From a bacterium (GTDB taxonomy: Bacteria > Patescibacteriota > JACMRA01): DNA of 43,118 bases. The stretch covers positions 1-43,118 of the forward strand of contig JAYUKQ010000086.1 of NCBI GenBank assembly GCA_043764315.1. Direction: 5' to 3'. This document shows, one piece after another, positions 11,074-40,792 of this stretch. The position numbers and the translations under genes were made by a program. The notes under the pieces were generated by a model, which did not search any database, had not been told where the DNA came from, and saw only the letters and a list, made by a program, of their open reading frames with translations. Positions within the stretch are counted from its first letter, which is position 1. Each line of letters begins with the position of its first letter.

Positions 11074-12569
11074 AAAAGGAGGTAATCCATCCACAGCTTC
11101 CGCTACGGATGCCTTGTTACAACTTAAATTCAGTCACTGAGCTAGCCTTCCATTCCAAAACTGAAATTTTGGGGCTCTCTCAATTCCCAAACCTTGATGG
11201 GCAGTGTGTACAAAACCCGAGAACGTATTCACCGCGACGAGGCTGATTCGCGATTACTAGCAATTCCAGCTTCATGGAGTCGGGTTGCAGACTCCAATCC
11301 GTACTTAGGGAGGTTTTAATAGATTTGCTTGGCCTTGCGACTTAGCTGTCTCGTTGTACCTTTCCCATTGTATCATGTGTGTAGCCCTGGACATAAGGGA
11401 CACGCTGATCTGACGTCATTCTATCCTTCCTCCCGTTTAAACACGGGCAGTCTCTCTAGACATTAAATAACTAGAGATTAGAGTTGCGCTCGTTTTCGGA
11501 CTTAACCGAACATCTCACGACACGAGCTGACGACGACCGTGCATCACCTGTGAAAGCTTCTAGCAAGCTAGATCATCAGTGTTTCCACCTTTTACTACTA
11601 ACATGTCAAGCCCAGGTAAGGTTCCTCGCTTAATATCGAATTAAACCACATGATCCACTGCTTGTGCGGGTTCCCGTCAATTCCTTTGTGTTTTAGCCTT
11701 GCGGCCGTACTATACAGGCGGAGTGCTTATAGCGTTAGCTTTTGCCACTAAATCAGATTGATTTGACCTAATAGCAAGCACTCATCGTTTAGGGCGTGGA
11801 ATACTAGGGTATCTAATCCTATTCTCTCCCCACGCTTTCGTCCTAGCAGTGTCAGGATACACCCAGTAGTCTGCTTTCGCTTTTGGCGTTCCTTTACATA
11901 TCAACGGATTTCACCCCTACTTGTAAAGTTCCAACTACTTTTTTGTACCTCAAGTCTAGCAGTTTCCGAACCAAACACGCAGTTAAGCTGCGGTCTTTCA
12001 ATTCGGACATACTAAACAACCTTCGGAACGCTTTACGCCCAATAAAACCGGATAACGCTTGGAGCCTCTGTATCACCGCTGCTGCTGGCACAGAGTTTGC
12101 AGCTCCTTTCTAGAGATCTCTTCAAAATTTAGTAGATCTCCACAGAAGTTTACGACCCGAGGGCCTTCATCCTTCACGCGGCATGGCTCGGTCAGGGTTT
12201 CCCCCATTGCCAAAAATTCCCCACTGCTGCCACCCGTAGGTGTCTGGGCCGTGTCGCAGTCCCAGCGTGCCTAATCGTCCTCTCAGACTAGGTACCCGTC
12301 TTAGGCTTGGTGAGCTATTACCTCACCAACTACCTGATAGGAAATAGGCCTTGTCAATAGCGGTTTACACCTTTAATCTTACGATCACATTTGGGATTAC
12401 CTAGTCTTTCAACTAGCTATACCAAACTATTGGGAAGTTCCTATTTATTACTCACTCGTTTGCCGCTGATCATTTTTATGTATTGCTACACAAGAAATCA
12501 CCGCTCGACTTGCATGTGTAAAGCCTGCCGCCAGCGTTAATCCTGAGCTAGGATCAAACTCTCAAAAAG
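11074..12569 (-). rRNA. rrs: 16S ribosomal RNA, about 1.5 kb, no large insertion
   Basis: Reverse complement begins ...gagtttgatcctagctcaggattaacgctggcggc and ends ...gtaacaaggcatccgtagcggaagctgtggatggattacctcctt. Conserved blocks are present throughout. Ends are good to a few nt. Confidence 0.95.
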
Positions 12570-12863: not shown

Positions 12864-13904
12864 ATGTCATTTTATAAAATATTAGTTCTTGGTGCTGGTG
12901 GACACGGTATTTTATCTCTTAGGAATCTGTTTGAAGAGGAAAAAATTGATTTTAAAATATTTTATAATACAACTGATTGGGGAGGTAGTTACGGTCTGTG
13001 GGGAAGATTATTGGAATATAATAATCACGAATTAAATCAAAAACTACACAATCAAAAACTTCCAGTACTACCTTTTGCTGATCCTAATAAATTAATTTGT
13101 TTTTACTTAGAAAAATCTGGGATTGATCCAAAATTGTATTTTGACTTTAGATCAAACAATCAAAAAGAACATGTGTCTGCAATTAATAAAATGTTTGATA
13201 AAATAAAATTGACCAATGATCAAAAATCAAAATTTTTAGAGTATTTTGGTATAGTTTGGTATTATTATAAGCAAAATAGATTTAATTTGGAGTATGAGAG
13301 CAAATTATGTCTGGGTTATATATTTCAGTCTTTTTTATATTCAAGCCTTGGTGGTATGAAAGCCTGGAATACATTTTATCAAAATATTGGAATATTACCA
13401 AAAAACATTGAGATATGTTTTAGTGGCGATGATAGAAATATATTAGCTGGTAATGATATAAGCCTAGAGCGTGTTATTGGGGAAGACAAATTAGACACAT
13501 ATCAAAGTCCGATACTTCCTAACAGTTTGGAACTACTAGATATATACCATCAAACAATAAACTGCAATCGATTAACCGTAGATTGCGTTGAGCAATCAGA
13601 TTTGATTATAATACCAAATGGTTCAGTAGCAAATTGGTTACCACTAACAAACGACTCAACATTAAAAACAACATTAAAAAGTAAAAAAATTGTTTGGATA
13701 ACCAATCCTTACCGCACTCACAACGAATTGATAAACCCTAACTATTACCTATATTTGAAAGAAAATGATTTTAACTCTATTCCACTTGCTCAATTAAATG
13801 GAATTAAAAACAAAGGTTTTTGGAATGTACTGGAACAAGATAAACAAGGCAAATATAAACCAAAAGATATAGCAAATCAAATTTTAAAAATAATCGAAGA
13901 ATAA
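12864..13904 (+). CDS. YvcK/CofD (UPF0052) family protein, divergent
   Basis: KILVLGAGGHGILSLRNL and NTTDWGGSYGLWGRL correspond to YvcK IGGGTGLS and ADDGGSSGRLR. DLIIIPNGSVANWLPL corresponds to ADVIVIGPGSLYTSVLP. Confidence 0.7.
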   Translation: MSFYKILVLGAGGHGILSLRNLFEEEKIDFKIFYNTTDWGGSYGLWGRLLEYNNHELNQKLHNQKLPVLPFADPNKLICFYLEKSGIDPKLYFDFRSNNQKEHVSAINKMFDKIKLTNDQKSKFLEYFGIVWYYYKQNRFNLEYESKLCLGYIFQSFLYSSLGGMKAWNTFYQNIGILPKNIEICFSGDDRNILAGNDISLERVIGEDKLDTYQSPILPNSLELLDIYHQTINCNRLTVDCVEQSDLIIIPNGSVANWLPLTNDSTLKTTLKSKKIVWITNPYRTHNELINPNYYLYLKENDFNSIPLAQLNGIKNKGFWNVLEQDKQGKYKPKDIANQILKIIEE

Positions 13905-13917
13905 AACTGTATTAATT

Positions 13918-14523
13918 ATGCCCACAGCATCTCTTAGAGCTCCAGAAGGTTATCACCTTGTGAATATAATGCAATCTTGTATGCATGTAAGGTTAGACTT
14001 ATTTTTAAAATTTGGAGGTCATCCAGGGGCAGCTGGCTTTACATTGATAAAAGAAAATTTGATAGAGGCTAAACATTTGATGAGTTCACAAGTCAAGCCA
14101 AATACACAAGAACCAATTAAGTTTAATCAAAACATTGAAACACCAAAGGAATGGAATAATTTAATATGTAAAAAAAATATAATCTGGATAAAAATACAAA
14201 ATTTAGATATTAATCTACTGAATCAAGTTTTTGAGTTAGATCCATTTGGTCAAGACTTCCCTTTACCTAGTTTTGGTTTCAAATTAAGCCAAGAAGATAT
14301 TTTGAATTATTCTTTAATGGGAAACGATAATCAACATTTAAAAATAGAAGTTAATGGTTTCAAAATATTATATTTTAATGCTGATAAAAAAGTAATTGAA
14401 TACGTAAAAAATCCAATTGAAATGATGTGGATAATTGCCAAACCTAATAAAAGTAGTTTTAGACAAAAAACTTCTGTGGATTTGATTTTAGAAAAATTTT
14501 ATGTGAACAAACAAACTGAATGA
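13918..14523 (+). CDS. RecJ-like DHHA1 and C-terminal domain only (N-terminally truncated recJ remnant or stand-alone domain)
   Basis: ASLRAPEGYHLVNIMQSC...LFLKFGGHPGAAGFTL matches the RecJ GSxRS...FGGHxxAAG DHHA1 signature. The DHH catalytic domain is absent, and only 13 nt separate this ORF from the upstream gene. Confidence 0.6.
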   Translation: MPTASLRAPEGYHLVNIMQSCMHVRLDLFLKFGGHPGAAGFTLIKENLIEAKHLMSSQVKPNTQEPIKFNQNIETPKEWNNLICKKNIIWIKIQNLDINLLNQVFELDPFGQDFPLPSFGFKLSQEDILNYSLMGNDNQHLKIEVNGFKILYFNADKKVIEYVKNPIEMMWIIAKPNKSSFRQKTSVDLILEKFYVNKQTE

Positions 14524-20107: not shown

Positions 20108-20260
20108 TTCTTACGTAAAAAAGTAATATTAATTATTGTATTATTTAGTAAATATTTCTTAATCTTTTAAAGATTATTGTATTGACAAAATATCAAAAAA
20201 TAGTCTAAACTAACAATCACTAACCTAAGTCAATTTTTGGCTAAACTAAATTATAATTAT

Positions 20261-20755
20261 ATGGCTACCCCAAAATCCAAAAAAACTAACATCGTCAACC
20301 TCTTAAAAAATGAAGTCAGCTCCCAAAAATCAATTGTTTTTGTAACAACTAAAGATACCAAGAAAACTGTAAATTCAATTGCTAACTTCGATCTTAGATC
20401 AAAATCTTACCATTCTGGTCTCAAAGTTTCCATAGTCAAAAATTCACTTATTCAAAAATCATTCAACACTGTATCAAAATTAACTGGTCAAACTTATATG
20501 GCTTATTTAATCAAAACGGAAGATACAAATGAAGTAATTGTTCCTAAATTGTTTATTAAGATGATCAGTAGTGATTTCCCAGATCAATTTAATGTTGTAG
20601 GAGCTTTGATTAACGGAGAATTTGTAGATGCTGCAGAAGCGATTAAGTACTCTAATATACCAACTAAAGATGAATCTTTGGGTATGGTTGCTGGAGCGTT
20701 AAATCAAGTTGCTGCTGGAATAGCTAGGGCTGTCAAAGCTATTAGTGAAAAGTAA
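20261..20755 (+). CDS. rplJ: 50S ribosomal protein L10
   Basis: Length and N-terminal pattern match L10, and the gene sits directly upstream of L7/L12. ATG 20261 is preferred over the TTG at 20237. Confidence 0.8.
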   Translation: MATPKSKKTNIVNLLKNEVSSQKSIVFVTTKDTKKTVNSIANFDLRSKSYHSGLKVSIVKNSLIQKSFNTVSKLTGQTYMAYLIKTEDTNEVIVPKLFIKMISSDFPDQFNVVGALINGEFVDAAEAIKYSNIPTKDESLGMVAGALNQVAAGIARAVKAISEK

Positions 20756-20784
20756 TTGTTTATTATACACCCAAAAAAATTAAT

Positions 20785-20808
20785 CCTGACTAGTATCAGG
20801 TTTTTTTT
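20785..20808 (+). terminator. Rho-independent terminator between rplJ and rplL
   Basis: cctga (20785-20789) / tcagg (20796-20800), followed by T8. Confidence 0.7.
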
Positions 20809-20951
20809 AATTACAAGCAATAACCCTATACACAATAAAAAATTATCTTGACAAGAAAATCAAACTTATGTTAACATAACCTAGATGCTGTCTAAACTTC
20901 TGTCGGTTTAGATTTTATTTTATTGTAAAATTCATCTGCAATTTTGTTAAT

Positions 20952-21323
20952 ATGTCCAAAACTCAACAAATCATCGACCAATTAAAAGAGCTATCCTTGA
21001 TGGAAGCCGCTGAATTGGTAAAATCTATAGAAGAAACCTTTGGCGTATCTGTTGCTGCCCCTGTAGCTGTTATGGCTGCCGCCGGTCCTGTAGCTGCCGC
21101 TGAAGAAAAGACTGAATTCAATGTTAAAGTAACTGAGGTTCCAGCTGATAAGAAAATCTCTGTAATTAAAGCTGTTAAGACACTTTTGAATATTGGTCTA
21201 GCTGATGCTAAAGCTAAAGTGGAATCTGCTCCTTTTGTATTATCTGAAGGTGTTAACAAAGAAACTGCCGAAGCTCAAAAATCTCAATTAGTTGAAGCTG
21301 GTGCTGTGGTTGTGCTTGAGTAA
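20952..21323 (+). CDS. rplL: 50S ribosomal protein L7/L12
   Basis: N-terminal dimerisation helix, Ala/Pro/Val hinge AAPVAVMAAAGPVAAAEE, and C-terminal domain KISVIKAVKTLLNIGLADAKAKVE...EAGAVVVLE. Confidence 0.95.
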   Translation: MSKTQQIIDQLKELSLMEAAELVKSIEETFGVSVAAPVAVMAAAGPVAAAEEKTEFNVKVTEVPADKKISVIKAVKTLLNIGLADAKAKVESAPFVLSEGVNKETAEAQKSQLVEAGAVVVLE

Positions 21324-21346
21324 TTATAAACCCAAATTACACCATT

Positions 21347-22123
21347 ATGTTAAGTTTAGCTAATCTATATCAATTGGGTACACACCGTGGAAACAGCAAA
21401 TCTAAGCTTAATCCGAGACTAAAAAATCGTGTGTATTCATACAAAAAGAATCTCTGTACTATTGATTTGGTCTCTACAATGGATTCCATTGTCAAAGTTA
21501 AAGATTTATTTCAAAAACTAGGTCACAAGAAAAAACAGATTTTAATTGTTGGTACATCTAATCATCTTTCTACCAATGTTCCTGAAATGGCTAAGCTGTT
21601 TACTAGTAACGAAATGCCTTATATCAACGCTCGTTGGTTGGGTGGTACTTTGACCAATTGGGTAACAATTAAGAAAAATCTAAAAATTCTTGAAAAACTA
21701 GAAAATATTCGAAATGATGAAAAATTTTTTGGCGCTTTAGCTCGCAATGAACAATTAAGTATTTCTCGCAAAATTGTGAAAATGAACAAGTTTTTTGTTG
21801 GTTTAAAAAACCTAAAAACTAATCGTCCTGGAGCTATTTTGGTTTTAGATTCAGCTTTAAATGATATTGCTATCAAAGAAGCTGAATTGGTTGGAATCCC
21901 TGTTGTCGCTTTGACTAATACTTTCATCCAAACTTTACCAAAAAATTCAAGTTACACTGTGTTGTGTAACAACAACTCAATTAATGCAGTTGACTTTATT
22001 GTCAAAGAGTTTGTTGATTCATACAACATTGGTTTAACAATGGCTATTGAGTCGGTTCAGAAGGAAAAATCTGAAAAGACTGCCAAGGTTGAACATATTG
22101 TAAGCGAAGAAGTTGTTGCTTAA
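21347..22123 (+). CDS. rpsB: 30S ribosomal protein S2
   Basis: LGTHRGNSKSKLNPRLKNRVYSYKKNLCTIDL corresponds to the S2 motif GxHFGHxxxxWNPKM..YI...R..IxIIDL. The length also fits. Confidence 0.85.
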   Translation: MLSLANLYQLGTHRGNSKSKLNPRLKNRVYSYKKNLCTIDLVSTMDSIVKVKDLFQKLGHKKKQILIVGTSNHLSTNVPEMAKLFTSNEMPYINARWLGGTLTNWVTIKKNLKILEKLENIRNDEKFFGALARNEQLSISRKIVKMNKFFVGLKNLKTNRPGAILVLDSALNDIAIKEAELVGIPVVALTNTFIQTLPKNSSYTVLCNNNSINAVDFIVKEFVDSYNIGLTMAIESVQKEKSEKTAKVEHIVSEEVVA

Positions 22124-22291
22124 CTAACTCCAACTTAAACGACTAAATTAGATTTATATACAAAGTAATTATAATTTTTTAAGCTAATTTTATAATTCCA
22201 ATTAAAGTATTCCAATAGTTTTAACTTAAAGAATATTTTTTATTTTTAGTAAAATCTAATTTAGTCATTTTAAATTTAATTTTTAATCACT

Positions 22292-22492
22292 ATGGCTTGG
22301 CAAAAAAACAAAATTTTGTTGGTTTCTGTGGAAGAGGTAACTCAACCTGATGGAACTATCAAGAAAGTCTATCATCGCTACGTGGTCAACAAATCCAAAG
22401 CAAAAGGTAAACCAATAAAAAAATTGGAACTTAAACGCTATAACCCTATTCTTAGGAAGCATGTCATTTATAAAGAAACAAAGTACAAATAA
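22292..22492 (+). CDS. rpmG: 50S ribosomal protein L33 (non-zinc type)
   Basis: The C-terminus KLELKRYNPILRKHVIYKETKYK closely matches E. coli L33 [23 protein letters not shown]. Confidence 0.9.
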   Translation: MAWQKNKILLVSVEEVTQPDGTIKKVYHRYVVNKSKAKGKPIKKLELKRYNPILRKHVIYKETKYK

Positions 22493-22495
22493 TAT

Positions 22496-22699
22496 ATGTT
22501 TAAAAGTAAATCCCGCGGTGCTATTTCTAAGAAAATTAAGGTAACTAATGGAGGAGATACCTCAAAAGGTAAATTTAAAATTGGTACAATTGGTCGTTGT
22601 CACCGCATGATCAAAAAAAATCGCCAACGTGTTTTGAACGGTAAGAAAAAGACTATGTTAAACATGTCTACTCACGCTCGTTTCAAAGCTATGTTGTAA
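22496..22699 (+). CDS. rpmI: 50S ribosomal protein L35
   Basis: 67 aa and very basic. The N-terminal KSKSRGAISKKIKVT pattern resembles L35 K-x-K-T-x-x-GA-x-KRFK-x-T. Immediately upstream of rplT, as in the canonical rpmI-rplT pair. Confidence 0.75.
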   Translation: MFKSKSRGAISKKIKVTNGGDTSKGKFKIGTIGRCHRMIKKNRQRVLNGKKKTMLNMSTHARFKAML

Positions 22700-22726
22700 T
22701 TTTCCGTTAATAATCTATTCTGAAAC

Positions 22727-23080
22727 ATGTCCAGAGTCAAAAAAGGTGTCGCCGCCTTAAAACATCGCAAATACCTTCTGGCCAGAGCAAAAGGGTTCCA
22801 AAATGCAGCTAAGTCAAAATTTAGGATTGCTAAAGAAAGACTGCTTAAAGCGGAATCCAATGCTTACAAATCAAGAAAACTACGCAAAAGAGAATTTCGT
22901 TCTTTATGGATTACCAGAATTAATGGTGCTCTAGACCAAATCGGTAGTGCAATGAATTATTCAACATTCATCAATCTATTGACCAAATCTGGATCAGCTT
23001 TAAATCGAAAATCTGTATCCGAAATTGCGCTTCGTGATCTTGAGGCCTTCAAGAAGTTGGTGGCTGGCTTAACTAAATAA
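22727..23080 (+). CDS. rplT: 50S ribosomal protein L20
   Basis: MSRVKKGVAALKHRKYLLARAKGF...YKSRKLRKREFRSLWITRING matches L20 from end to end. Confidence 0.95.
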   Translation: MSRVKKGVAALKHRKYLLARAKGFQNAAKSKFRIAKERLLKAESNAYKSRKLRKREFRSLWITRINGALDQIGSAMNYSTFINLLTKSGSALNRKSVSEIALRDLEAFKKLVAGLTK

Positions 23081-23091
23081 CTTTCACAATT

Positions 23092-23637
23092 ATGTCCCGT
23101 GTTGGTAAAAAAGTAATACAAATCGATCAAAGCGTTAAGTTTGAACTTAATGGAAATCAAGTCGTTGTATCTGGTCCGAAAGGCTCCATTTCTGCGGCTA
23201 TATTAGATTTCATTATTATCGAAAACGCTGAAAACAGTCTACAAATTTCTGTTAAAGATCCTAAAAGTAAATTCCAAAAAGCTGTGTGGGGAACAACTAG
23301 AGCTATTTTAGCAAATATGGTAACTGGTGTAACAACTGGTTTTACCAAAGAGGTAGAATTAAATGGTGTAGGTTTCAAAATGGAACTTTCTGGTCAAACT
23401 TTGACTGCTTACATTGGTTTCTCTCATCCTGTTAAATTAGACGTTGATCCCGCAATCAAACTAGTTTTGAACAAAAATCTTCTTACTGGAACTTCTCATG
23501 ACAAACAACTATTGAATAACTTCTTTGGTAATTTGCATGAGATGAAACCCTGTGACCCTTATAAGCACAAAGGATTCAAGTTCCCAGGTCGATTCTACAT
23601 CAAGAAAGTTGGTAAAAAAGGTGGTAAAGGTAAGTAG
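23092..23637 (+). CDS. rplF: 50S ribosomal protein L6
   Basis: MSRVGKKVIQI...VVVSGPKGSIS...NGVGFK...GFSHPV follows the L6 pattern. Confidence 0.9.
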   Translation: MSRVGKKVIQIDQSVKFELNGNQVVVSGPKGSISAAILDFIIIENAENSLQISVKDPKSKFQKAVWGTTRAILANMVTGVTTGFTKEVELNGVGFKMELSGQTLTAYIGFSHPVKLDVDPAIKLVLNKNLLTGTSHDKQLLNNFFGNLHEMKPCDPYKHKGFKFPGRFYIKKVGKKGGKGK

Positions 23638-23765
23638 AGTTAAAATACAAAATTAAAAATGCAAATCTATTTGGTAATTTAATTTTTATTATCTATCTTT
23701 TCATTGTTAGTTTTTTATCTTAATCTCAACAAACTTAATCAATTTTTAGTTTATATTCATATTCT

Positions 23766-24089
23766 ATGTCTACTCAAGCAATTAGAAAACGAAGAACTAC
23801 TCAAAAAATTACTTACTTCTATCCAGTCTTGACTGTGTCTCGATCCAATAAGAATATTATGGTTCAAGTTATTAGTCCAGAAACTAGACAAGTAGTTTTT
23901 ACAGCTAGTTCTAACAAATTAACTGGTATTAGCAAATCAGATCAATCTATTTCGATAGGTAAGACTGTGGCTGATTGGTTAAAAACTAACAATATGCCTC
24001 AAGCAGTTTATAACCGTAATGGTTACCTTTACCATGGTAGAGTAAAAGCTGTTGCTGAAGCTGTTCGTGAAGCTGGGATTATCATTTAA
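23766..24089 (+). CDS. rplR: 50S ribosomal protein L18
   Basis: The C-terminus NRNGYLYHGRVKAVAEAVREAGI matches L18 DRGGYxYHGRVKALADAAREAGL. Confidence 0.92.
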   Translation: MSTQAIRKRRTTQKITYFYPVLTVSRSNKNIMVQVISPETRQVVFTASSNKLTGISKSDQSISIGKTVADWLKTNNMPQAVYNRNGYLYHGRVKAVAEAVREAGIII

Positions 24090-24221
24090 TCCCTTTCTTT
24101 TTTAAATTTAATTATGCAGAAGCTTTAATTCTTATTTTACCTTAAGTTTGATTGTCAATCTGAATAAATTTCAGAATCCATTAAATTATAACTTAATAAT
24201 AAAAGAGTTAAACCCTCCGCT

Positions 24222-24977
24222 ATGACACATATTTTTATGTCAGAAGTACAAATAACCCCAACTCCAACAACTCCAGTAGTTTCAACTGCTCCAAAACCAG
24301 TTCAAAAAACTGAACGTACAGGACAAGCTAGTGGCCAAAATAATGGTCAACGTCGATCCTTTAACAGAACTCGTGATGGTAATTCATCCGCTCCTAGTGC
24401 AACTGGAGGAAGTCGTTTTGGTCGCCCTGGTCAAGGTGATCGCCGAAATAGTAGTGATCGCCCAAGTGGTCGCAACGATAGAGCTGCCGCTGGTCGCCCT
24501 GGTGGTCGCAATGATCGCCGCCAAAAAGAAAAAGAAGAACCCTTGTATGAATCTAAAGTGATCGAAGTTCGTCGCGTTACTCGTGTAGTAAAAGGTGGTA
24601 AAAGAATGAGATTTTCAGCTTTAGTAGTTGTCGGTGACCGAAATGGTAAAGTAGGATTTGGTTTGAAAAAAGGTTTAGATTTTGCAGATGCTGTTGCTAA
24701 GGCAACAAAAAAAGCAACCAATTCAGTTATTAAAGTTAGCTTGGATAAGAACAAATCTATCTCCTTTACTTCAAACACAAAACACAAATCTGCGGAAATA
24801 TTTCTCAAACCAGCTACTCATGGTACTGGATTAATTGCTGGAGGTTTTGTGCGTCCAGTTCTAGAACTGGCAGGTGTGGAAAATGTTTACTCTAAGATCA
24901 ACAGAACTCGTAACAAGATTCCTGGTGTTCAATGTGTAATCAAAGCTCTTCAAAAATACTCCAATAACAAGCAATAA
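24222..24977 (+). CDS. rpsE: 30S ribosomal protein S5 with a roughly 100-aa low-complexity N-terminal extension
   Basis: The core VIEVRRVTRVVKGGKRMRFSALVVVGDRNGKVGFGLKKG is canonical S5. It is preceded by an R/G/N/D/S/P-rich segment containing the repeat GRNDR...GRNDR. Confidence 0.93.
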   Translation: MTHIFMSEVQITPTPTTPVVSTAPKPVQKTERTGQASGQNNGQRRSFNRTRDGNSSAPSATGGSRFGRPGQGDRRNSSDRPSGRNDRAAAGRPGGRNDRRQKEKEEPLYESKVIEVRRVTRVVKGGKRMRFSALVVVGDRNGKVGFGLKKGLDFADAVAKATKKATNSVIKVSLDKNKSISFTSNTKHKSAEIFLKPATHGTGLIAGGFVRPVLELAGVENVYSKINRTRNKIPGVQCVIKALQKYSNNKQ

Positions 24978-24996
24978 TTATAACTAATATTTTATT

Positions 24997-25590
24997 ATGT
25001 CTTCAAATATAGAATTAATCAAAACTATTCGTTACAAAACTAACTTGTCTTTCAAAGATATCAAAAACGCCATTGAAGCTCTAAACACAGATAATGAGGT
25101 GGAAATTATTGATTATTTAAAGAAGCAAGGGGTTCTAAAATCTGCAGCAAAAGAAGGTCGTGAAGCAGCTCAAGGTTCTATATTCACGTATACTCACGAA
25201 ATGAGAATTGGTGTAATGATAGAAATCAAATGTGAAACCGACTTTGTAGCTCGTGGTGAAGACTTCCAACAATTAGGTAAAGAGCTTTGTTTACATATCG
25301 CCGCTTATCAACCAAAATTCGTTTCCGCAGAACAAGTATCTAAAGAATATATCGAAAGTGAACTTGCCTTAGCCAAAACTAAATTGGAAGAAGAGGGCAA
25401 AGCCAGTGAAATGATTACCAAAATATTGGAGGGTAAAAAATCTAAAATGGCTAAAGAGGTTTCACTTCTATCTCAACCTTTCTTGATGAATATGGAAATT
25501 TCAGTCGATGAACACGTTCGTCAATTAATGGCAAAATCAGGTGAAAACATACAAGTTAGCAAGTTTGTGGTGTATAACCTAAATGGGTAG
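24997..25590 (+). CDS. tsf: Elongation factor Ts, short 197-aa form
   Basis: UBA-like N-terminus (IKTIRYKTNLSFKDIKNAIEAL) and the core IGVMIEIKCETDFVARGEDFQ. Confidence 0.9.
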   Translation: MSSNIELIKTIRYKTNLSFKDIKNAIEALNTDNEVEIIDYLKKQGVLKSAAKEGREAAQGSIFTYTHEMRIGVMIEIKCETDFVARGEDFQQLGKELCLHIAAYQPKFVSAEQVSKEYIESELALAKTKLEEEGKASEMITKILEGKKSKMAKEVSLLSQPFLMNMEISVDEHVRQLMAKSGENIQVSKFVVYNLNG

Positions 25591-25595
25591 AATAT

Positions 25596-25842
25596 ATGTC
25601 TGAAAAATTACCAGAAATAGCTGTTGGTTATATTCAAGTTGACTATACCCCCCCCCACATCAGAACTTGAACAGATAAGAAAAAATATTGGAGCTGCCAC
25701 TGATTCACAGATAGTTTTTGCTGAAAATCCTATTATGCCCGAAGGTAACACTGTTGCTTTTGGAACTGCACCAGATGGAACACCAAAAAGTGGAGCTATT
25801 TTTGTAATTGGTGAACCCAACAGAATTGGTAGAACAGATTAA
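25596..25842 (+). pseudogene. Small ORF (about 81 codons if repaired) split by a frameshift at a C9 homopolymer (25648-25656)
   Basis: The ATG at 25596 reads MSEKLPEIAVGYIQVDYTPP and then stops at 25668. The +1 frame continues ...PPPTSELEQIRKNIGAATDSQ... to 25842. Removing one C, or adding two, fuses them. Confidence 0.55.
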
Positions 25843-25883
25843 AAGTAATAGAACACAATTTTTAACAAATTAACAACTCAAAA

Positions 25884-26168
25884 ATGTCTCTTACTGTAGA
25901 TTGTCAAAATCGAGTCGTAACTGGCCACGCTGTTCGAAAACTTCGTCGTGAAGGAATCATGCCAGCTGTCGTATACGGCGCCAAAATGGAACCTCTAAAT
26001 ATTCAACTCAATCTTAATGCCTTTGTAAAAATTGCTAAGTTATCTGGCAAAACTCAACCAATCACTCTTGATGTTGAAGGAAAGACTTTTTTAGTCAAAA
26101 TCCACCAAGCTGATCTTCATCCTGTGCGTGATACCTTCCGACACATTGACTTCTTAATAGTCAAATAA
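25884..26168 (+). CDS. rplY: 50S ribosomal protein L25, short 94-aa form
   Basis: [16 protein letters not shown] and ...HIDFL match the L25 signatures. Same length as E. coli L25. Confidence 0.85.
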
Positions 26169-26194
26169 TTACAAATATTAATTTTAAGACGAAT

Positions 26195-26632
26195 ATGCTT
26201 ACTCTATCCAATCTACCAAAAACAGTCATCAAACAATCTCGGAGAATCGGTCGTGGTATCGGTTCAGGTAAAGGTAAAAATGCTGGTCATGGTCACAAAG
26301 GTCAAATCAAACGAAATGGTGGTCGCAAGGCAACTGTAGGTTTTGAAGGTGGTCACGCCTCTTTGATCAAAAGAATCCCAAAATATCGTGGTTACAATAA
26401 TCCAGGTAGACTAAATCTCGATATGGTTACTTTGAACATTGGTGTAATTGCTAGATTTTTTGAAACAGGTGAAATGGTTAATATTGCAACTTTGCTGTTA
26501 AAAGACTTAGCCAACAAACACACTAAAAAAGTTAGAATTATCAAAAGTGGTGATGATCGAGGTAAAAAATTTTCTTTCGGTGAAGAAGTTTATCTAACCA
26601 AAGGTGCTAAAGACTTTTCAATAAACAATTAA
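26195..26632 (+). CDS. rplO: 50S ribosomal protein L15
   Basis: [22 protein letters not shown]...[15 protein letters not shown] is the L15 signature. Confidence 0.93.
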
Positions 26633-26634
26633 TT

Positions 26635-26769
26635 ATGAATTTTGAATCATTGATTAGTTCTAATATTGAAGAAGAAGGTACAGTTGCCAAAGATAATTCT
26701 TGTGTAAATAGTACCTGCTCAACATCTGGTTGTTTAGAAACACTAAAATATGGATTTGAAACATATTAA
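26635..26769 (+). CDS. 44-aa acidic, Cys/Ser/Thr-rich peptide (candidate precursor or signal peptide); below the ORF-track cutoff
   Basis: MNFESLISSNIEEEGTVAKDNSCVNSTCSTSGCLETLKYGFETY. The ATG is 2 nt after the rplO stop, and the ORF overlaps the next ORF's ATG by 20 nt. Its core CVNSTCSTSGC aligns with CLDSTFSNCDC of the peptide at 35531. Confidence 0.5.
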   Translation: MNFESLISSNIEEEGTVAKDNSCVNSTCSTSGCLETLKYGFETY

Positions 26770-27532
26770 GCAGTCAATCTTACAAGCTTCTCTTTCTATA
26801 GAGAGGTGTTTTGTTAATAGTAATTTTAAAATTAACCCTAATCAAGTTGTTAATAATTTCTTTAGTGACGATTTTAGTTACACTAGTTTTAACAATATCT
26901 GCTTTGAATTAGCACCTAACGAAACGCTATTGATTTTTAAATTAAGATCTAGGAGTTCTTTTAGTTTGCAGTTAATACATATGATGAGTCATCTTGATGG
27001 ATCACTTTTGGAAGTTGGAGCAAACATTCAAACAGTTGGTCATTTGGTTAAGTTTCATTTCCTAGCTGATTACTTTTTTTCTCACAAAAAAATAAATTAC
27101 TACTGTAGGGATCTGTTCTGGTTTAGTCTTGAAAGGATAGTATGGAATCATTTAAAATTTTATACCAACAATAAGGATAATTCAAGATTAGTTGAGTTAT
27201 TTTTGTGCTTATGTTTATTGCAAGATTTGGTACTTAAGAAAGATAAATGGCGACTAAAACATTTGATTAAAATTGTAAAAAATAAAATAACGTCAAAAAA
27301 CCAAACTAAAATTGAATTATCAGGAATGGTTGCAGTTATATATCGCTCTATCAAAGATGAATTATACTCTAAAGGTGATTATTCTTTGAAACATAAAAAG
27401 AAATTAAAAAACTTTCTAAAAAAACAATCTAAATATTGGAAGCAAATATGTCTCGGTGTTGAACAAAATTGCAAATATGAGGATGTGTTAGATTTAATTT
27501 TACTTCAGTTGAATACATATATCAAAAAATAA
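26750..27532 (+). CDS. Uncharacterised 260-aa protein, paralog of 35716..36525 (shared LIHxxxHxD motif)
   Basis: LIFKLRSRSSFSLQLIHMMSHLDGSLLEV aligns with LSLKLITRKEIELFLIHALAHSDAPIEV in the other copy. Further on, ELFLCLCLLQD plus a K-rich helix aligns with ELWAFCFMIDI plus a K-rich helix. Confidence 0.65.
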   Translation: MDLKHIKQSILQASLSIERCFVNSNFKINPNQVVNNFFSDDFSYTSFNNICFELAPNETLLIFKLRSRSSFSLQLIHMMSHLDGSLLEVGANIQTVGHLVKFHFLADYFFSHKKINYYCRDLFWFSLERIVWNHLKFYTNNKDNSRLVELFLCLCLLQDLVLKKDKWRLKHLIKIVKNKITSKNQTKIELSGMVAVIYRSIKDELYSKGDYSLKHKKKLKNFLKKQSKYWKQICLGVEQNCKYEDVLDLILLQLNTYIKK

Positions 27533-27634
27533 TCACATGTTTACAATGCAAGTGTTGTATTAGACATTACAATGAATTAAAGCTATTTTCTTGACAAAAA
27601 TGCTGTAACTTGTTTAACTAACTAAGTTGTCTTG

Positions 27635-27711
27635 GGGTGTGTAGCTCAGCTGGTTAGAGCACTTCACTGATAATGAAGAGGTCACAGGTCCGAGTCCTGT
27701 CACACCCACCA
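27635..27711 (+). tRNA. tRNA-Ile (anticodon GAT), CCA encoded
   Basis: Acceptor stem gggtgtg / cacaccc. D-arm gctcagctggttagagc. Anticodon arm cttca-ctGATaa-tgaag. T-arm acagg-tccgagt-cctgt. Discriminator a followed by cca. A TTGACA at 27591-27596 lies upstream. Confidence 0.9.
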
Positions 27712-27834: not shown

Positions 27835-28764
27835 ATGTCTTCCAACTTATTTTTAAATAACCACCCTGAAGTCAAAGCTAATTTGGTCAAGAATTCTGAT
27901 CAGAACTATACTTTAATAATTGAACCTTTGTATCCTGGATACGGTTACACAATTGGCAATTCTCTGCGTAGAATATTTCTATCGTCTATTCCAGGTTTTG
28001 GTATAACTAAAATCAAAATTAACGATTTGACTCATGAATATCAACCAGTTGCTGGTATTGTAGAAGATGCTTTGCAGATTATACTTAATCTTAAGATGGT
28101 TCGTGCTAGAATCAAAACTGATGAAGAAAGAGTTACAATGTCTTTTTCTAGAAATACCGCTGGTAATATCACAGCTGCTGAATTTAAGTCTGCTCATGCT
28201 GAAATTATCAACAAAGACCTTCATATTTGTACTTTGAATAAAGGTTCTAAACTTGACATTGAAATTGAAATTTCTCGAGGTGTTGGTTATCTTTCCATGG
28301 ATGATGTGAATCTAAGTGATAACAAAGATGCTCGTCAAATTTTGGTTGATGCTGTTTTTTCTCCAGTAACTAACGTCTTACTTAACGTATCTAAGGTTAG
28401 AGTAGGTGACAAAACCAATTTTGATAAAGTTGAAATCAATTTTGATATTGATGGTTCAGTTGATGCTATTGAAGTTGTAGACTATGCTTTGGATATAATG
28501 GCTAATATAATTTCTCAATCAAGAGCTAGTTTATCACTAAAAGTTTCTGATACTTCTCTCTATTCAAATACTCCAACTCACTCACCAGCTGCATTAAACA
28601 GCGAAGATGAAATTGATTTGCCAGAAAAAATTCGCAAGATACTAATTAAAAATGAGATACTTACAAACACTCAACTAAAAAATAGAATTGAAGAAGTTCG
28701 TGATTTTACTGGAATCGGAGCTAAAGCCTTGGAAGAAGTTCAAAATTACCTAAACAATCTATAA
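27835..28764 (+). CDS. rpoA: DNA-directed RNA polymerase alpha subunit
   Basis: N-terminal domain IEPLYPGYGYTIGNSLRRIFLSSIPG. The C-terminal domain carries a helix-hairpin-helix (FTGIGAKALEEV). Confidence 0.93.
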   Translation: MSSNLFLNNHPEVKANLVKNSDQNYTLIIEPLYPGYGYTIGNSLRRIFLSSIPGFGITKIKINDLTHEYQPVAGIVEDALQIILNLKMVRARIKTDEERVTMSFSRNTAGNITAAEFKSAHAEIINKDLHICTLNKGSKLDIEIEISRGVGYLSMDDVNLSDNKDARQILVDAVFSPVTNVLLNVSKVRVGDKTNFDKVEINFDIDGSVDAIEVVDYALDIMANIISQSRASLSLKVSDTSLYSNTPTHSPAALNSEDEIDLPEKIRKILIKNEILTNTQLKNRIEEVRDFTGIGAKALEEVQNYLNNL

Positions 28765-30171: not shown

Positions 30172-30606
30172 ATGATTACAATTTTACGCACACATAGAAT
30201 AGGTTCCAAGTTTTATGATTTAAAAGAGTTAGCAACAACACCAGAATCAGGAACAGAACCTTTTAATCAACAGGAGTTGGGTGCATTTTTAAAAAAGTTA
30301 AAATCAATGAACTTAATTGGATATAAAGGTGACTTTATTTACTCTCATGTACGTAAAGTTGATACTGTTAATAGTGAAACAGGTGAAAAATGTGTTATAG
30401 AACTTCCAGTGTTTGTATCTGGTGATATTTGGATTAGAGCATCTCCCTTAGGTGGTGGGAGAGTTACGAGTAATCAATTCAACGGAGCAAAGACTCTTGA
30501 AGAAATATACAAACTTGTTAATGGTCGTGAGCAATCTTATGGTACAGATTTAACAGGTGATAGTTTATCTGAATTAAGAAATGCTGCAAGTTCACTAATA
30601 TCCTAA
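30172..30606 (+). CDS. Hypothetical protein
   Basis: 144-aa ORF with typical composition. No motif recognised. Confidence 0.45.
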   Translation: MITILRTHRIGSKFYDLKELATTPESGTEPFNQQELGAFLKKLKSMNLIGYKGDFIYSHVRKVDTVNSETGEKCVIELPVFVSGDIWIRASPLGGGRVTSNQFNGAKTLEEIYKLVNGREQSYGTDLTGDSLSELRNAASSLIS

Positions 30607-35530: not shown

Positions 35531-35656
35531 ATGAGACAAAATAAGAGTATGTCTGAAGGCTTTTATCCAACACTAGAAAATTTAACAGAAGTAGAATCAA
35601 GTTTTACACAGAATCCAGAATGTTTAGATTCAACATTTAGTAACTGTGACTGTTAA
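35531..35656 (+). CDS. 41-aa acidic, Cys/Ser/Thr-rich peptide, homolog of the 26635 peptide; below the ORF-track cutoff
   Basis: MRQNKSMSEGFYPTLENLTEVESSFTQNPECLDSTFSNCDC. The C-terminal core aligns with CVNSTCSTSGC of peptide 1 (C1, S4, T5, S7 and C11 identical). Confidence 0.5.
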   Translation: MRQNKSMSEGFYPTLENLTEVESSFTQNPECLDSTFSNCDC

Positions 35657-35689
35657 GATTATTAGTGAATCAGTTTTGTAAGTTCTATT

Positions 35690-35713
35690 AAGCCCTAGTG
35701 GCTTTATTTTTTT
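35690..35713 (+). terminator. Short hairpin plus T-run between the peptide gene and its partner gene (possible leaky terminator or attenuator)
   Basis: aagcc (35690-35694) / ggctt (35700-35704), then tattttttt, ending 2 nt before the ATG at 35716. Confidence 0.4.
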
Positions 35714-35715
35714 AT

Positions 35716-36525
35716 ATGTTTAAGCTAACCCATTACTTGTACAACAGATTCAACACGTACCCAATACGTAGTCAAAATAGATTGACTAAAAGAATGATCA
35801 GAAACTATATATATAATAATCATTTATCGATCTTAAATGACAAGTCTTATTCTCACTTTTTATCTCTAAAACTTATTACCAGAAAAGAGATAGAATTATT
35901 TTTGATTCACGCTTTAGCTCACTCAGATGCCCCAATTGAAGTGTCTTTTAGAGAAATAGATTTTGGAGCAAAGTCTAATACAATAATAGATTTCTTGTGG
36001 TTTTTTACCAACGTAAAACCAACCAAAGTTGAAACTAAAGTTCTCTTGGAGTTAATCAAAATAGTTGTTAAAAGAAATTTTAAAATAAATTATTCTGATA
36101 AATCAATTAAGAGAGCTGATTTGGTTGATAAATCTAAATACATAACTGAATTGTGGGCTTTTTGTTTTATGATAGACATAATAATTAGTGAGTCATATAT
36201 TTGTTCATTGCAAAAACTAAAAATAAGAAAAAAATTGATTAAAAAACTCAAATCTAATCATTTCAAAGTTCCATTAAATTTTAGTTATTTTGCTTACTCT
36301 TTTGTAAATTCTTTTGCTATACATGATAATCCTAATAATTTAGTTAATTTCAAAACTGAACACTTTATTCCAATATTACAGCATAAGTTTAACACTCATT
36401 CGTTCACCAAATTACAACAAGTTGGTCAGAGTGTCATTGATAATGGAGTTGAAGGTAGTTACAATGCTACAGCGAATATAGTGTATAGTCACATACTAAA
36501 CCTTCTTGGAAGTGGTGATATTTGA
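35716..36525 (+). CDS. Uncharacterised 269-aa protein, paralog of 26750..27532 (shared LIHxxxHxD motif)
   Basis: See 26750..27532. ATG 35716 (MFKLTHY) is preferred over the GTG at 35698. Confidence 0.65.
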   Translation: MFKLTHYLYNRFNTYPIRSQNRLTKRMIRNYIYNNHLSILNDKSYSHFLSLKLITRKEIELFLIHALAHSDAPIEVSFREIDFGAKSNTIIDFLWFFTNVKPTKVETKVLLELIKIVVKRNFKINYSDKSIKRADLVDKSKYITELWAFCFMIDIIISESYICSLQKLKIRKKLIKKLKSNHFKVPLNFSYFAYSFVNSFAIHDNPNNLVNFKTEHFIPILQHKFNTHSFTKLQQVGQSVIDNGVEGSYNATANIVYSHILNLLGSGDI

Positions 36526-37220: not shown

Positions 37221-40272
<3,052 letters not shown>

Positions 40273-40328: not shown

Positions 40329-40523
40329 ATTCTTGCATTATACAAAATTAATCACTCCAATTATGGGGTCTTTTTTGTTTGTTTAAAATTTTTGATTTGT
40401 CAGAGTATTTCAAGAAATTTTGAAGTTCATAATTATTACTTAAACTGTATTATTGTCTTGACCAGAATTGGCTTATTATGGTATTTTTGGTTAGCAAATT
40501 TACTTTTTCTAATTTTTTTCTTT

Positions 40524-40792
40524 ATGCCTAATATCAACTCACCAATTACCAGAACTAACCCATCCTTAATTGTATTCTTACTAGATCAATCTGGTTCTAT
40601 GAGTGGACAGAAAAACTAATAATGGAACCAAATGCTGTTGGATTCGTGCTTAATGCTAAGCTTAATGACTTCAATAGATTCTTGAATGTCGGAACCCCTC
40701 TCGCTTCTGGCGATTTAGTTATTACCACTGTTCAACCTTCCTCAGCACAGTTGACTAATAGTAGTAACAACACTTTTGATTTGCCAATGTAA
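40524..40792 (+). pseudogene. von Willebrand factor A (TerY-like) gene remnant, frameshifted at an A5 run and 3'-truncated
   Basis: MPNINSPITRTNPSLIVFLLDQSGSMSGQKN then a double stop (MIDAS DxSGS motif). The -1 frame continues (L)IMEPNAVGFVLNAKLNDFNRFL...DLVITTVQ, which looks like vWA helix 1 and strand 2, and ends at 40792. The repaired length of about 90 aa is far short of a roughly 180-aa vWA fold. Confidence 0.6.

Follow-up and report, generated by a model that had tools for sequence, protein, structure and literature searches.

Several bacterial systems pair a very small product with a larger partner. In Agrobacterium, the small acidic chaperone VirE1 is co-expressed with VirE2, a nucleic-acid-binding type IV secretion system (T4SS) substrate, and is encoded just upstream of it (PMC4513855, PMC5389803). 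Type II toxin-antitoxin (TA) and effector-immunity pairs such as epsilon/zeta and colicin DNase-Im are tight and co-directional, with a small acidic product first and a larger basic one second, and SCIFF/ranthipeptide pairs consist of a ~45-aa multi-cysteine precursor and one radical-SAM maturase. Several RRNPP pairs (Rap-Phr, PrgX-PrgQ, AimR-AimP) regulate conjugation or lysogeny. T4SS biology is thought to be central to the epibiotic lifestyle of Patescibacteria, and we know of essentially no described cargo proteins of their T4SSs. Here, we analyze a 43,118-nucleotide contig of a Patescibacteria-like bacterium (JAYUKQ010000086.1; the whole stretch is hereafter called the window) and describe within it a two-gene cassette at 26635-27532, composed of pep1, a gene for a 44-aa tri-cysteine peptide, and A, a gene for a 260-aa partner protein of no known family. 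Comparisons across loci indicate that pep1 and A are real, co-inherited genes under constraint that move together between unrelated sites. The module resembles known small-product-plus-partner cassettes on mobile DNA, but both of its protein families are undescribed and, judged by its sequence, the cassette has no defining feature of any known family.

The pep1 gene (MNFESLISSNIEEEGTVAKDNSCVNSTCSTSGCLETLKYGFETY; 26635..26769, plus strand) starts 2 nt past the rplO stop codon, overlaps the ATG of A by 20 nt, and encodes a C-x4-C-x4-C cysteine core, all as given in a preliminary description of the window. Its product is acidic (isoelectric point (pI) 4.06, charge -5.5) and lacks a signal or hydrophobic segment, with a maximum 19-residue hydropathy of 0.24. 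Codon usage is typical of real genes, with a log-likelihood ratio (LLR) of 0.233 per codon that was reached by 0 of 56 spurious open reading frames (ORFs), and gene callers report pep1 in three other assemblies. We found homologous peptides at two further loci, L012 (43 aa, MSLECFFESDPIEEGVVKDENSCVGNRACYGEVCVSSIEHGFN) and L021 (46 aa, MSLENFNFESDPIEEGVAKDENSCIGNRACHGEVCVLSIDYGFDGK), to which pep1 aligns with Smith-Waterman z values of 11.7 and 10.1 (0 of 5000 shuffles scored as high); searched against the window by tblastn, the L012 peptide hits the pep1 frame only (E 9.9e-6). Residues E4, S9, E13, E14, G15, N21, S22, C23, N25, C28, C33, G40 and F41 are invariant across the peptides, which thereby keep the motifs EEG, NSC, C, C and GF. 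Length is held at 43-46 aa, cysteine spacing in the family is C-x4/5-C-x4-C, and charge ranges from -5.5 to -7.4; conservation does not extend to the Ser/Thr positions. Comparison of the L012 and L021 genes gave 8 synonymous differences (S = 25) and 9 nonsynonymous ones (N = 104), corresponding to an omega of 0.22 (NG86) and a synonymous excess with binomial p = 0.009, and the expected conservation at the amino-acid level is thus borne out as purifying selection.

Taken at the level of sequence, these data indicate that pep1 is a real, conserved gene rather than a chance ORF. The opposing view, in which the small frame arose by chance or serves only as a regulatory upstream ORF, such as an attenuator or leader peptide, and its product is functionless, could appeal to its shortness, to its overlap with the partner start in the window and to the frequency with which ORFs of 30-50 aa arise there by chance (14.5 kb hold 95 ORFs of 30 aa or more), yet it is essentially excluded by the amino-acid conservation (z 10-12), the omega value and synonymous excess, the gene-like codon usage, the kept length and a cysteine spacing that we count as invariant, and the overlap that would suit it is not conserved between loci. 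The same comparison qualifies the tight coupling proposed earlier for the two genes: they are always tightly spaced, but the 20-nt overlap in the window is replaced by gaps of 11 and 4 nt elsewhere. In the window and in L012 the peptide and partner frames are offset differently, and they are therefore two separate genes; a single frameshifted gene was rejected on these differing offsets and on the stop codons present. Shine-Dalgarno sequences precede no gene of this genome and therefore cannot be used for judging starts.

The partner A (26750..27532, plus strand) was delimited as an ORF and through its remote homologs, whose alignment from M1 backs its start codon. It is strongly basic (pI 9.5, charge +17), with a charge density of +6.6 per 100 aa that is reached or exceeded in the window only by ribosomal proteins and the transposase, and basicity of this order hints at nucleic-acid binding. 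There is no signal or transmembrane segment. Conserved positions comprise R68-S-S, H77-x3-H81-L-D83, H103-x3-D107, Y198-R-S and W230, and the two invariant i/i+4 His/Asp pairs among them (H-x3-H-L-D and H-x3-D) resemble a metal site formed between adjacent helices. The partner genes of L012 and L021 give an omega of 0.16, which again indicates purifying selection. The protein is predicted to be all-alpha; AlphaFold2 models reached a pLDDT of 38.5 for A alone and 41.2 with a three-sequence alignment, values usable only for the statement that it is mostly helical, and a Foldseek search with the better model gave meaningless matches (best E 0.74, TM score at most 0.3).

Scans of Pfam, NCBIfam, PHROGs and PADLOC covered A, its homologs P0003 and P0004, the proteins of a second locus considered below (B and its putative peptide pep2), the peptides, and N- and C-terminal fragments, and returned nothing above threshold; the only weak library matches were DUF1836 on the N-terminus of B and a spurious CBF/Mak21 hit on P0003. 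A matched nothing in these four libraries or in PDB, consistent with the earlier statement that it carries no known maturase signature. Against the A family, Pfam and NCBIfam gave no match within E 1 (E 10 for fragments), and neither a helix-turn-helix (HTH) nor a tetratricopeptide repeat (TPR) domain was detected. PDB sequence searches with the partner profile, the peptide profile and B yielded chance matches only, tblastn against plasmids and phages found no match, nor did the A-family profile or B in IMG/VR, and pep1, pep2 and the L012 peptide matched no known precursor family (SCIFF, NHLP, Nif11, lanthipeptide and others) in NCBIfam or Pfam.

A full HMMER scan of 1.84 billion proteins with A identified one remote homolog, P0003, a 268-aa protein that aligns in full length at 28% identity (E 1e-8). 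The related cluster P0004 came from a profile search, P0003 and P0004 being 28-30% identical to A over the full length, and cluster look-ups added the variants P0005-P0008; in a word-index search of 5.8 billion protein clusters A and B each found only itself. The family comprises three 90%-identity clusters among ~5.8 billion, and all its members, like the window contig, come from related sample series (ERZ273143xx, ERZ28573xxx/ERZ28574xxx (SAMN194337xx) and SRR146894xx), for which no paper was found. General importance may be small for a family so rare and drawn from one group of related metagenome samples.

A homologous peptide ORF of 43-46 aa lies directly upstream of the homolog group in three of four contexts. 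In L012, the 43-aa ORF ends 11 nt before the ATG of P0003, and the pair sits in a conjugative T4SS operon between genes for a cell-wall hydrolase (M23) and the coupling protein; the T4SS location holds for L012-L015, and L016, L017 and L023 are identical short contigs. In L021, P0006 lies 3' of a riboflavin-synthase-like (ribE-like) gene and the 46-aa ORF ends 4 nt before its ATG, and in L022 the C-terminal part of the same peptide precedes P0005. (The L022 contig opens, at positions 1-65, with an Illumina adapter (GTGACTGGAGTTCAGACGTGTGCTCTTCCGATCT) joined to the 3' portion of the peptide gene, an adapter contamination.) A small cysteine-containing ORF beside remote partner homologs, which the preliminary description had predicted, is therefore present directly upstream in L012, L021 and, in part, L022. 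On each of the three points it had named in advance, namely this adjacency, the amino-acid conservation of the peptide and the family of the partner, the findings agree with its proposal of a conserved peptide-plus-partner module of an undescribed family.

The limits of the mobile unit are visible from the same contigs. L012 and L021 become homologous ~33 nt upstream of the peptide ATG, and the sequence right after the partner stop varies: L012 and L023 continue into a 367-aa T4SS gene, L021 into a different sequence, and L018, L022 and L024 share a third. Including the window, the two-gene unit has at least four unrelated contexts, and no exporter, leader protease or immunity gene travels with it in the flanks of the L012 and L021 copies or in the post-stop sequences. 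Neither the window copy, in a ribosomal-protein operon, nor the L021 copy, with its ribE-like neighbor, adjoins T4SS genes. In L018 (1-136) and L024 (1-62), the region ahead of the partner, whole peptide gene included, is replaced by unrelated sequence, with a breakpoint ~10 nt before the partner ATG.

The L012 scaffold (L012:1-20598; ERZ28574377 scaffold_529) appears to be a complete conjugative element, encoding a type ISP restriction enzyme, a T4SS pilin, TrbL, a VirB4-like ATPase, the M23 hydrolase, the coupling protein, a TrwC relaxase and an RPA-like initiator. Its low G+C content (32.8%) is reported as matching the window, and its VirB4-like protein shares 24-29% identity with CD1110-family ATPases from plasmids of monoderms. 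The T4SSs of Patescibacteria belong to the monoderm conjugation type, and a recent survey reports that most of their clusters lack a relaxase (PMC12102498); the TrwC relaxase is notable if the element is from Patescibacteria.

At the window locus, the cassette interrupts an otherwise conserved junction. Six relatives (L002-L007) have rplO, then tRNA-Ile(GAU) within ~25-60 nt, then rpoA, with no insert, and relative to them the window carries ~1 kb extra at the rplO/tRNA-Ile junction. The left flank, rplO (L15; 26195..26632, plus strand), was identified by tblastn and is 44-49% identical to the full-length L15 of L003-L007, and 36% identical to that of L002, where only the C-terminal 69 residues are present. 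The right flank is the one tRNA-Ile(GAU) of the window (27635..27711, plus strand), followed by rpoA (27835-28764); a lone tRNA-Ile(GAU) between rplO and rpoA is an arrangement kept in the six relatives. Because a promoter-like TTGACA ~39 nt 5' of the tRNA has a counterpart at a similar distance in L002, and the relatives lack the insert, we infer an inserted segment of ~950 bp at 26633..27585 (plus strand, right edge approximate), running from the rplO stop to this native spacer. The earlier view that the cassette occupies the place of secY-adk-map-infA-rpmJ-rpsM-rpsK-rpsD is misleading for this lineage, in which the six relatives pass directly from rplO to tRNA-Ile(GAU) and rpoA, and infA, rpsM, rpsK and rpsD are in fact ~17 kb downstream on a longer public contig.

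The G+C contents of A (26.9%) and B (27.4%) are the lowest among the listed genes of the window (33.8% overall) and the codon usage of both is atypical for the host, which fits a foreign origin. Neither locus (26635-27532 or 35531-36525) is flanked by terminal direct or inverted repeats, and there is thus no sign of a transposon or integron cassette; the 3' spacer folds no better than shuffled sequences (z 0.89). We conclude that the region from 26633 to ~27585 is a horizontally acquired, self-contained two-gene cassette whose family is not a known one. No promoter-sized spacer lies ahead of it, and its expression probably depends on read-through and translational coupling from the ribosomal-protein operon. 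Three strain variants (L001, L019 and L020), at 99.9% identity, carry no selection signal, because the sole change in the cassette is C51Y in A.

How far does the cassette follow the known pairs? It shares with VirE1-VirE2 a small acidic protein immediately 5' of a basic one, and one of its members lies inside a T4SS operon. There is, however, no sequence similarity and no Pfam family on either cassette product, and the window and L021 cassettes are away from T4SS genes. VirE2 is also much larger than the ~260-aa partner. With type II TA and effector-immunity modules it has in common the bicistronic, co-directional and tight acidic-then-basic order, a place on a conjugative element as well as at scattered, unrelated chromosomal sites, and a patchy, narrow distribution. 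Unlike them, it shows no homology to any toxin, antitoxin or defense family (Pfam, NCBIfam, PADLOC), its small product has only 43-46 aa with three invariant cysteines, the evolutionary rate of its small gene does not exceed that of the large one, and it has a partner-only allele (L018/L024, on ~1.1-kb contigs).

Peptide-based systems offer likenesses of another kind. As in SCIFF/ranthipeptide pairs, a ~44-aa cysteine peptide stands beside one larger gene with no dedicated exporter, and the adjacency typical of a ribosomally synthesized and post-translationally modified peptide (RiPP) pair is seen in the window, L012, L021 and L022, though not in L018/L024. In contrast to these pairs, the partner has neither a radical-SAM CxxxCxxC motif nor a Pfam/NCBIfam match, pep1 is unmatched by NCBIfam precursor models and has three rather than six cysteines, and the cassette is mobile, with one copy in a conjugation operon. 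RRNPP pairs likewise recall a predicted all-helical ~260-aa protein beside a ~44-codon peptide gene, of which one copy is on a conjugative element. The cassette differs from them in that its peptide gene is upstream, not downstream or divergent, its peptide is acidic (-5.5) without a signal or hydrophobic segment, and its partner has no detected HTH or TPR.

We tentatively favor a reading in which the acidic three-cysteine mini-protein acts as a binder that holds or escorts its strongly basic, helical partner with the His/Asp site, as the cassette is a portable two-gene unit without an exporter, protease or immunity gene. Both products are predicted to be cytoplasmic and would interact directly: the peptide (-5.5 to -7.4 across the family) would bind its charge-complementary partner (+17), itself possibly nucleic-acid-binding, and keep it inactive or soluble until needed, and its thiols may contact the partner's His/Asp metal site. 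The logic would be that of antitoxin-toxin, immunity-effector and VirE1-VirE2 chaperone-substrate pairs, and the T4SS site of one member suits a protein that is transferred or associated with transfer. Several observations weigh against such a binder. Sequence and structure searches revealed no similarity to a toxin, antitoxin, immunity protein or chaperone; C-x4/5-C-x4-C is no classical zinc motif; and conservation is slightly higher in the peptide than in the partner (38% versus 28%), an unusual pattern for antitoxins. In two samples (L018 and L024) an intact partner ORF, 97-99% identical to P0006, is preceded by at least 111 nt and at least 62 nt of unrelated sequence with no peptide ORF (the contigs are only ~1.1 kb), and such a partner-only allele is awkward for a toxin, which needs its inhibitor. 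Finally, three invariant cysteines separated by variable residues after a conserved acidic N-terminal half also resemble a RiPP precursor.

That last resemblance leads to a RiPP-like pair, in which a leader-plus-core precursor would have its cysteines modified by a new helical His/Asp metalloenzyme and the product would act inside the cell or exit via a host transporter. This is the main rival, if a rather unlikely one, and it accounts for the precursor-like layout (an acidic N-terminal half with E4, S9 and EEG, then NSC, C and C separated by variable residues, and GF), for His/Asp pairs typical of catalytic metal sites, for adjacency kept despite 28% partner identity, and for L018/L024, since an enzyme-only allele would be harmless and is easier to explain than a toxin left alone. 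No maturase, RiPP recognition element or precursor family was detected, however, and no radical-SAM, YcaO, Lan, ATP-grasp or DUF692 gene lies near the window or L012 copies; the mobile unit is two genes without an exporter, leader peptidase or immunity gene. The peptide is conserved at least as well as the putative enzyme, where a RiPP core usually evolves fastest, the variable Ser/Thr positions make lanthionine chemistry unlikely, and the sites inside conjugation and ribosomal-protein operons would go unexplained. The stronger version, an undescribed peptide-maturation class in which a small all-helical His/Asp metalloenzyme modifies the three invariant cysteines and which has spread among Patescibacteria-like bacteria on conjugative elements, we regard as unlikely. 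More improbable still are obligate subunits of one protein, a metal/redox center or DNA-binding regulator built from the peptide cysteines and the partner's His/Asp ligands, with no inhibitor or substrate relation between the products; spacing in the style of co-translation, the similar omega of the two genes, three cysteines and several His/Asp residues that could form a Cys/His metal site, and a basicity suited to nucleic-acid binding speak for it, but the partner-only allele and the failure of searches of the A family to detect a DNA-binding domain, HTH or otherwise, do not, and the structural models are too low in confidence to help.

The consequences differ with the reading. An inhibitor-effector or chaperone-substrate pair, as under the favored binder, would add a wholly new sequence family to the conflict and transfer repertoire of Patescibacteria, and a peptide-modifying pair would represent a new maturase fold acting on cysteines. 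The compact two-gene construct is readily testable, and the case illustrates how comparative context alone can validate a 44-codon ORF beside an orphan gene.

A second locus in the window, at 35531-36525, had been taken for another copy of the cassette. ORFs do exist there at 35531-35656 and 35698-36525, but the resemblance does not extend to demonstrable homology. The small one, pep2 (35531..35656, plus strand), is a 41-aa acidic ORF of doubtful status with three cysteines and an ambiguous codon score (0.043). It falls outside the top 12 of 774 window segments on the peptide profile, and aligns to the L012 and L021 peptides with z ~1 and to pep1 with z 3.1 (49 of 5000 shuffles as high). The large one, B (35716..36525, plus strand), is a 269-aa basic orphan protein from the ATG called in L019 and L025; an alternative GTG at 35698 would give 275 aa, and public gene calls give 243 or 269 aa. 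Between pep2 and B lies a terminator-like hairpin with a T-run (35690..35704, plus strand) that overlaps the GTG start of the 275-aa reading.

The earlier claim that B and A are collinear paralogs likewise finds no support in profile comparisons. BLASTP aligns them at E 0.067 and non-collinearly, hhalign of B against the A-family profile gives a probability of 1.4% with only the LIHxxxHxD stretch aligned, and the 9.6 bits of B on the A-family hidden Markov model are noise, an unrelated L005 segment reaching 10.5 bits. Only the Smith-Waterman scores of B against A (z 4.4-4.9, 1-2 per 500-1000 shuffles, controls at most 2.9) and of pep1 against pep2 (the z of 3.1 above) are suggestive of kinship, and B against P0003 scores z 0.6. 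The LxLIHxxxHxD stretch is the only one common to A and B, although the loci are physically alike in peptide pI (4.05-4.10), partner pI (9.5-9.9) and size. By these comparisons, 35531-36525 is a separate orphan pair and not a demonstrated duplicate of pep1/A. Over residues 4-53 (35716-35880), B matches DUF1836, which belongs to the HTH clan (PMC3146951), below threshold (18-19 bits where the cutoff is 27), a hint that B may bind DNA.

The closest relatives of the window's rpoA are metagenome-assembled genomes of Patescibacteria/the candidate phyla radiation (43-58% identity), and the window genome is Patescibacteria-like. Its genetic code is the standard one: reading UGA as sense was rejected because long conserved ORFs are intact and TGA terminates 3 of 35 ORFs. 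In a relative labelled Gracilibacteria (L004:8590-9725), L15 and L25 look split or truncated under table 11 and tblastn aligns across the break, a pattern compatible with UGA as sense (code 25) there, TGA being a stop in the window organism. The rRNA genes are unlinked, with 16S at 11075-12569 on the minus strand and 23S 25 kb off at 37221-40271 on the plus strand; no 5S rRNA in the window reached the Rfam gathering score. Ribosomal-protein gene order is scrambled (20237-26632 and L025:13686-17804), running L10, L7/L12, S2, L33, an uncharacterized 67-aa gene, L20, L6, L18, S5, EF-Ts, L25 and L15 in the window, with infA, S13, S11, S4 and S16 ~17 kb further on, past 23S, PP2C, a kinase-like gene and miaA. 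The stretch S8-L6-L18-S5-EF-Ts-L25-L15 is common to relatives.

Other features of the window are minor. At its left end, adjoining secA, a 290-aa ORF (167-1039) has HTH_38 and rve integrase-core domains and the look of an IS30-like transposase. A 201-aa ORF with DHHA1 and RecJ_OB and the 346-aa ORF before it, which has no Pfam match (together 12864-14523), may be a split or very divergent recJ. Between tsf and L25, a 72-aa ORF (25624-25842) has clearly gene-like codon usage (LLR 0.30); the strain variant L019 carries a 2-bp deletion within it (CC, 25648-25649), and the ORF is uncalled there. Two short ORFs of 75 and 56 aa just 5' of the PP2C gene (40392-40792), the first ending with a vWA-like DxSGS motif, look like fragments of one interrupted gene. 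Contig k141_1823608 (L001) differs from the window by a single-nucleotide polymorphism only up to 30315, and its last 137 nt (L001:13567-13703, corresponding to window 30316-30452 within the ORF 30172-30606) are wholly divergent, pointing to a structural variant or to a junction made in assembly.

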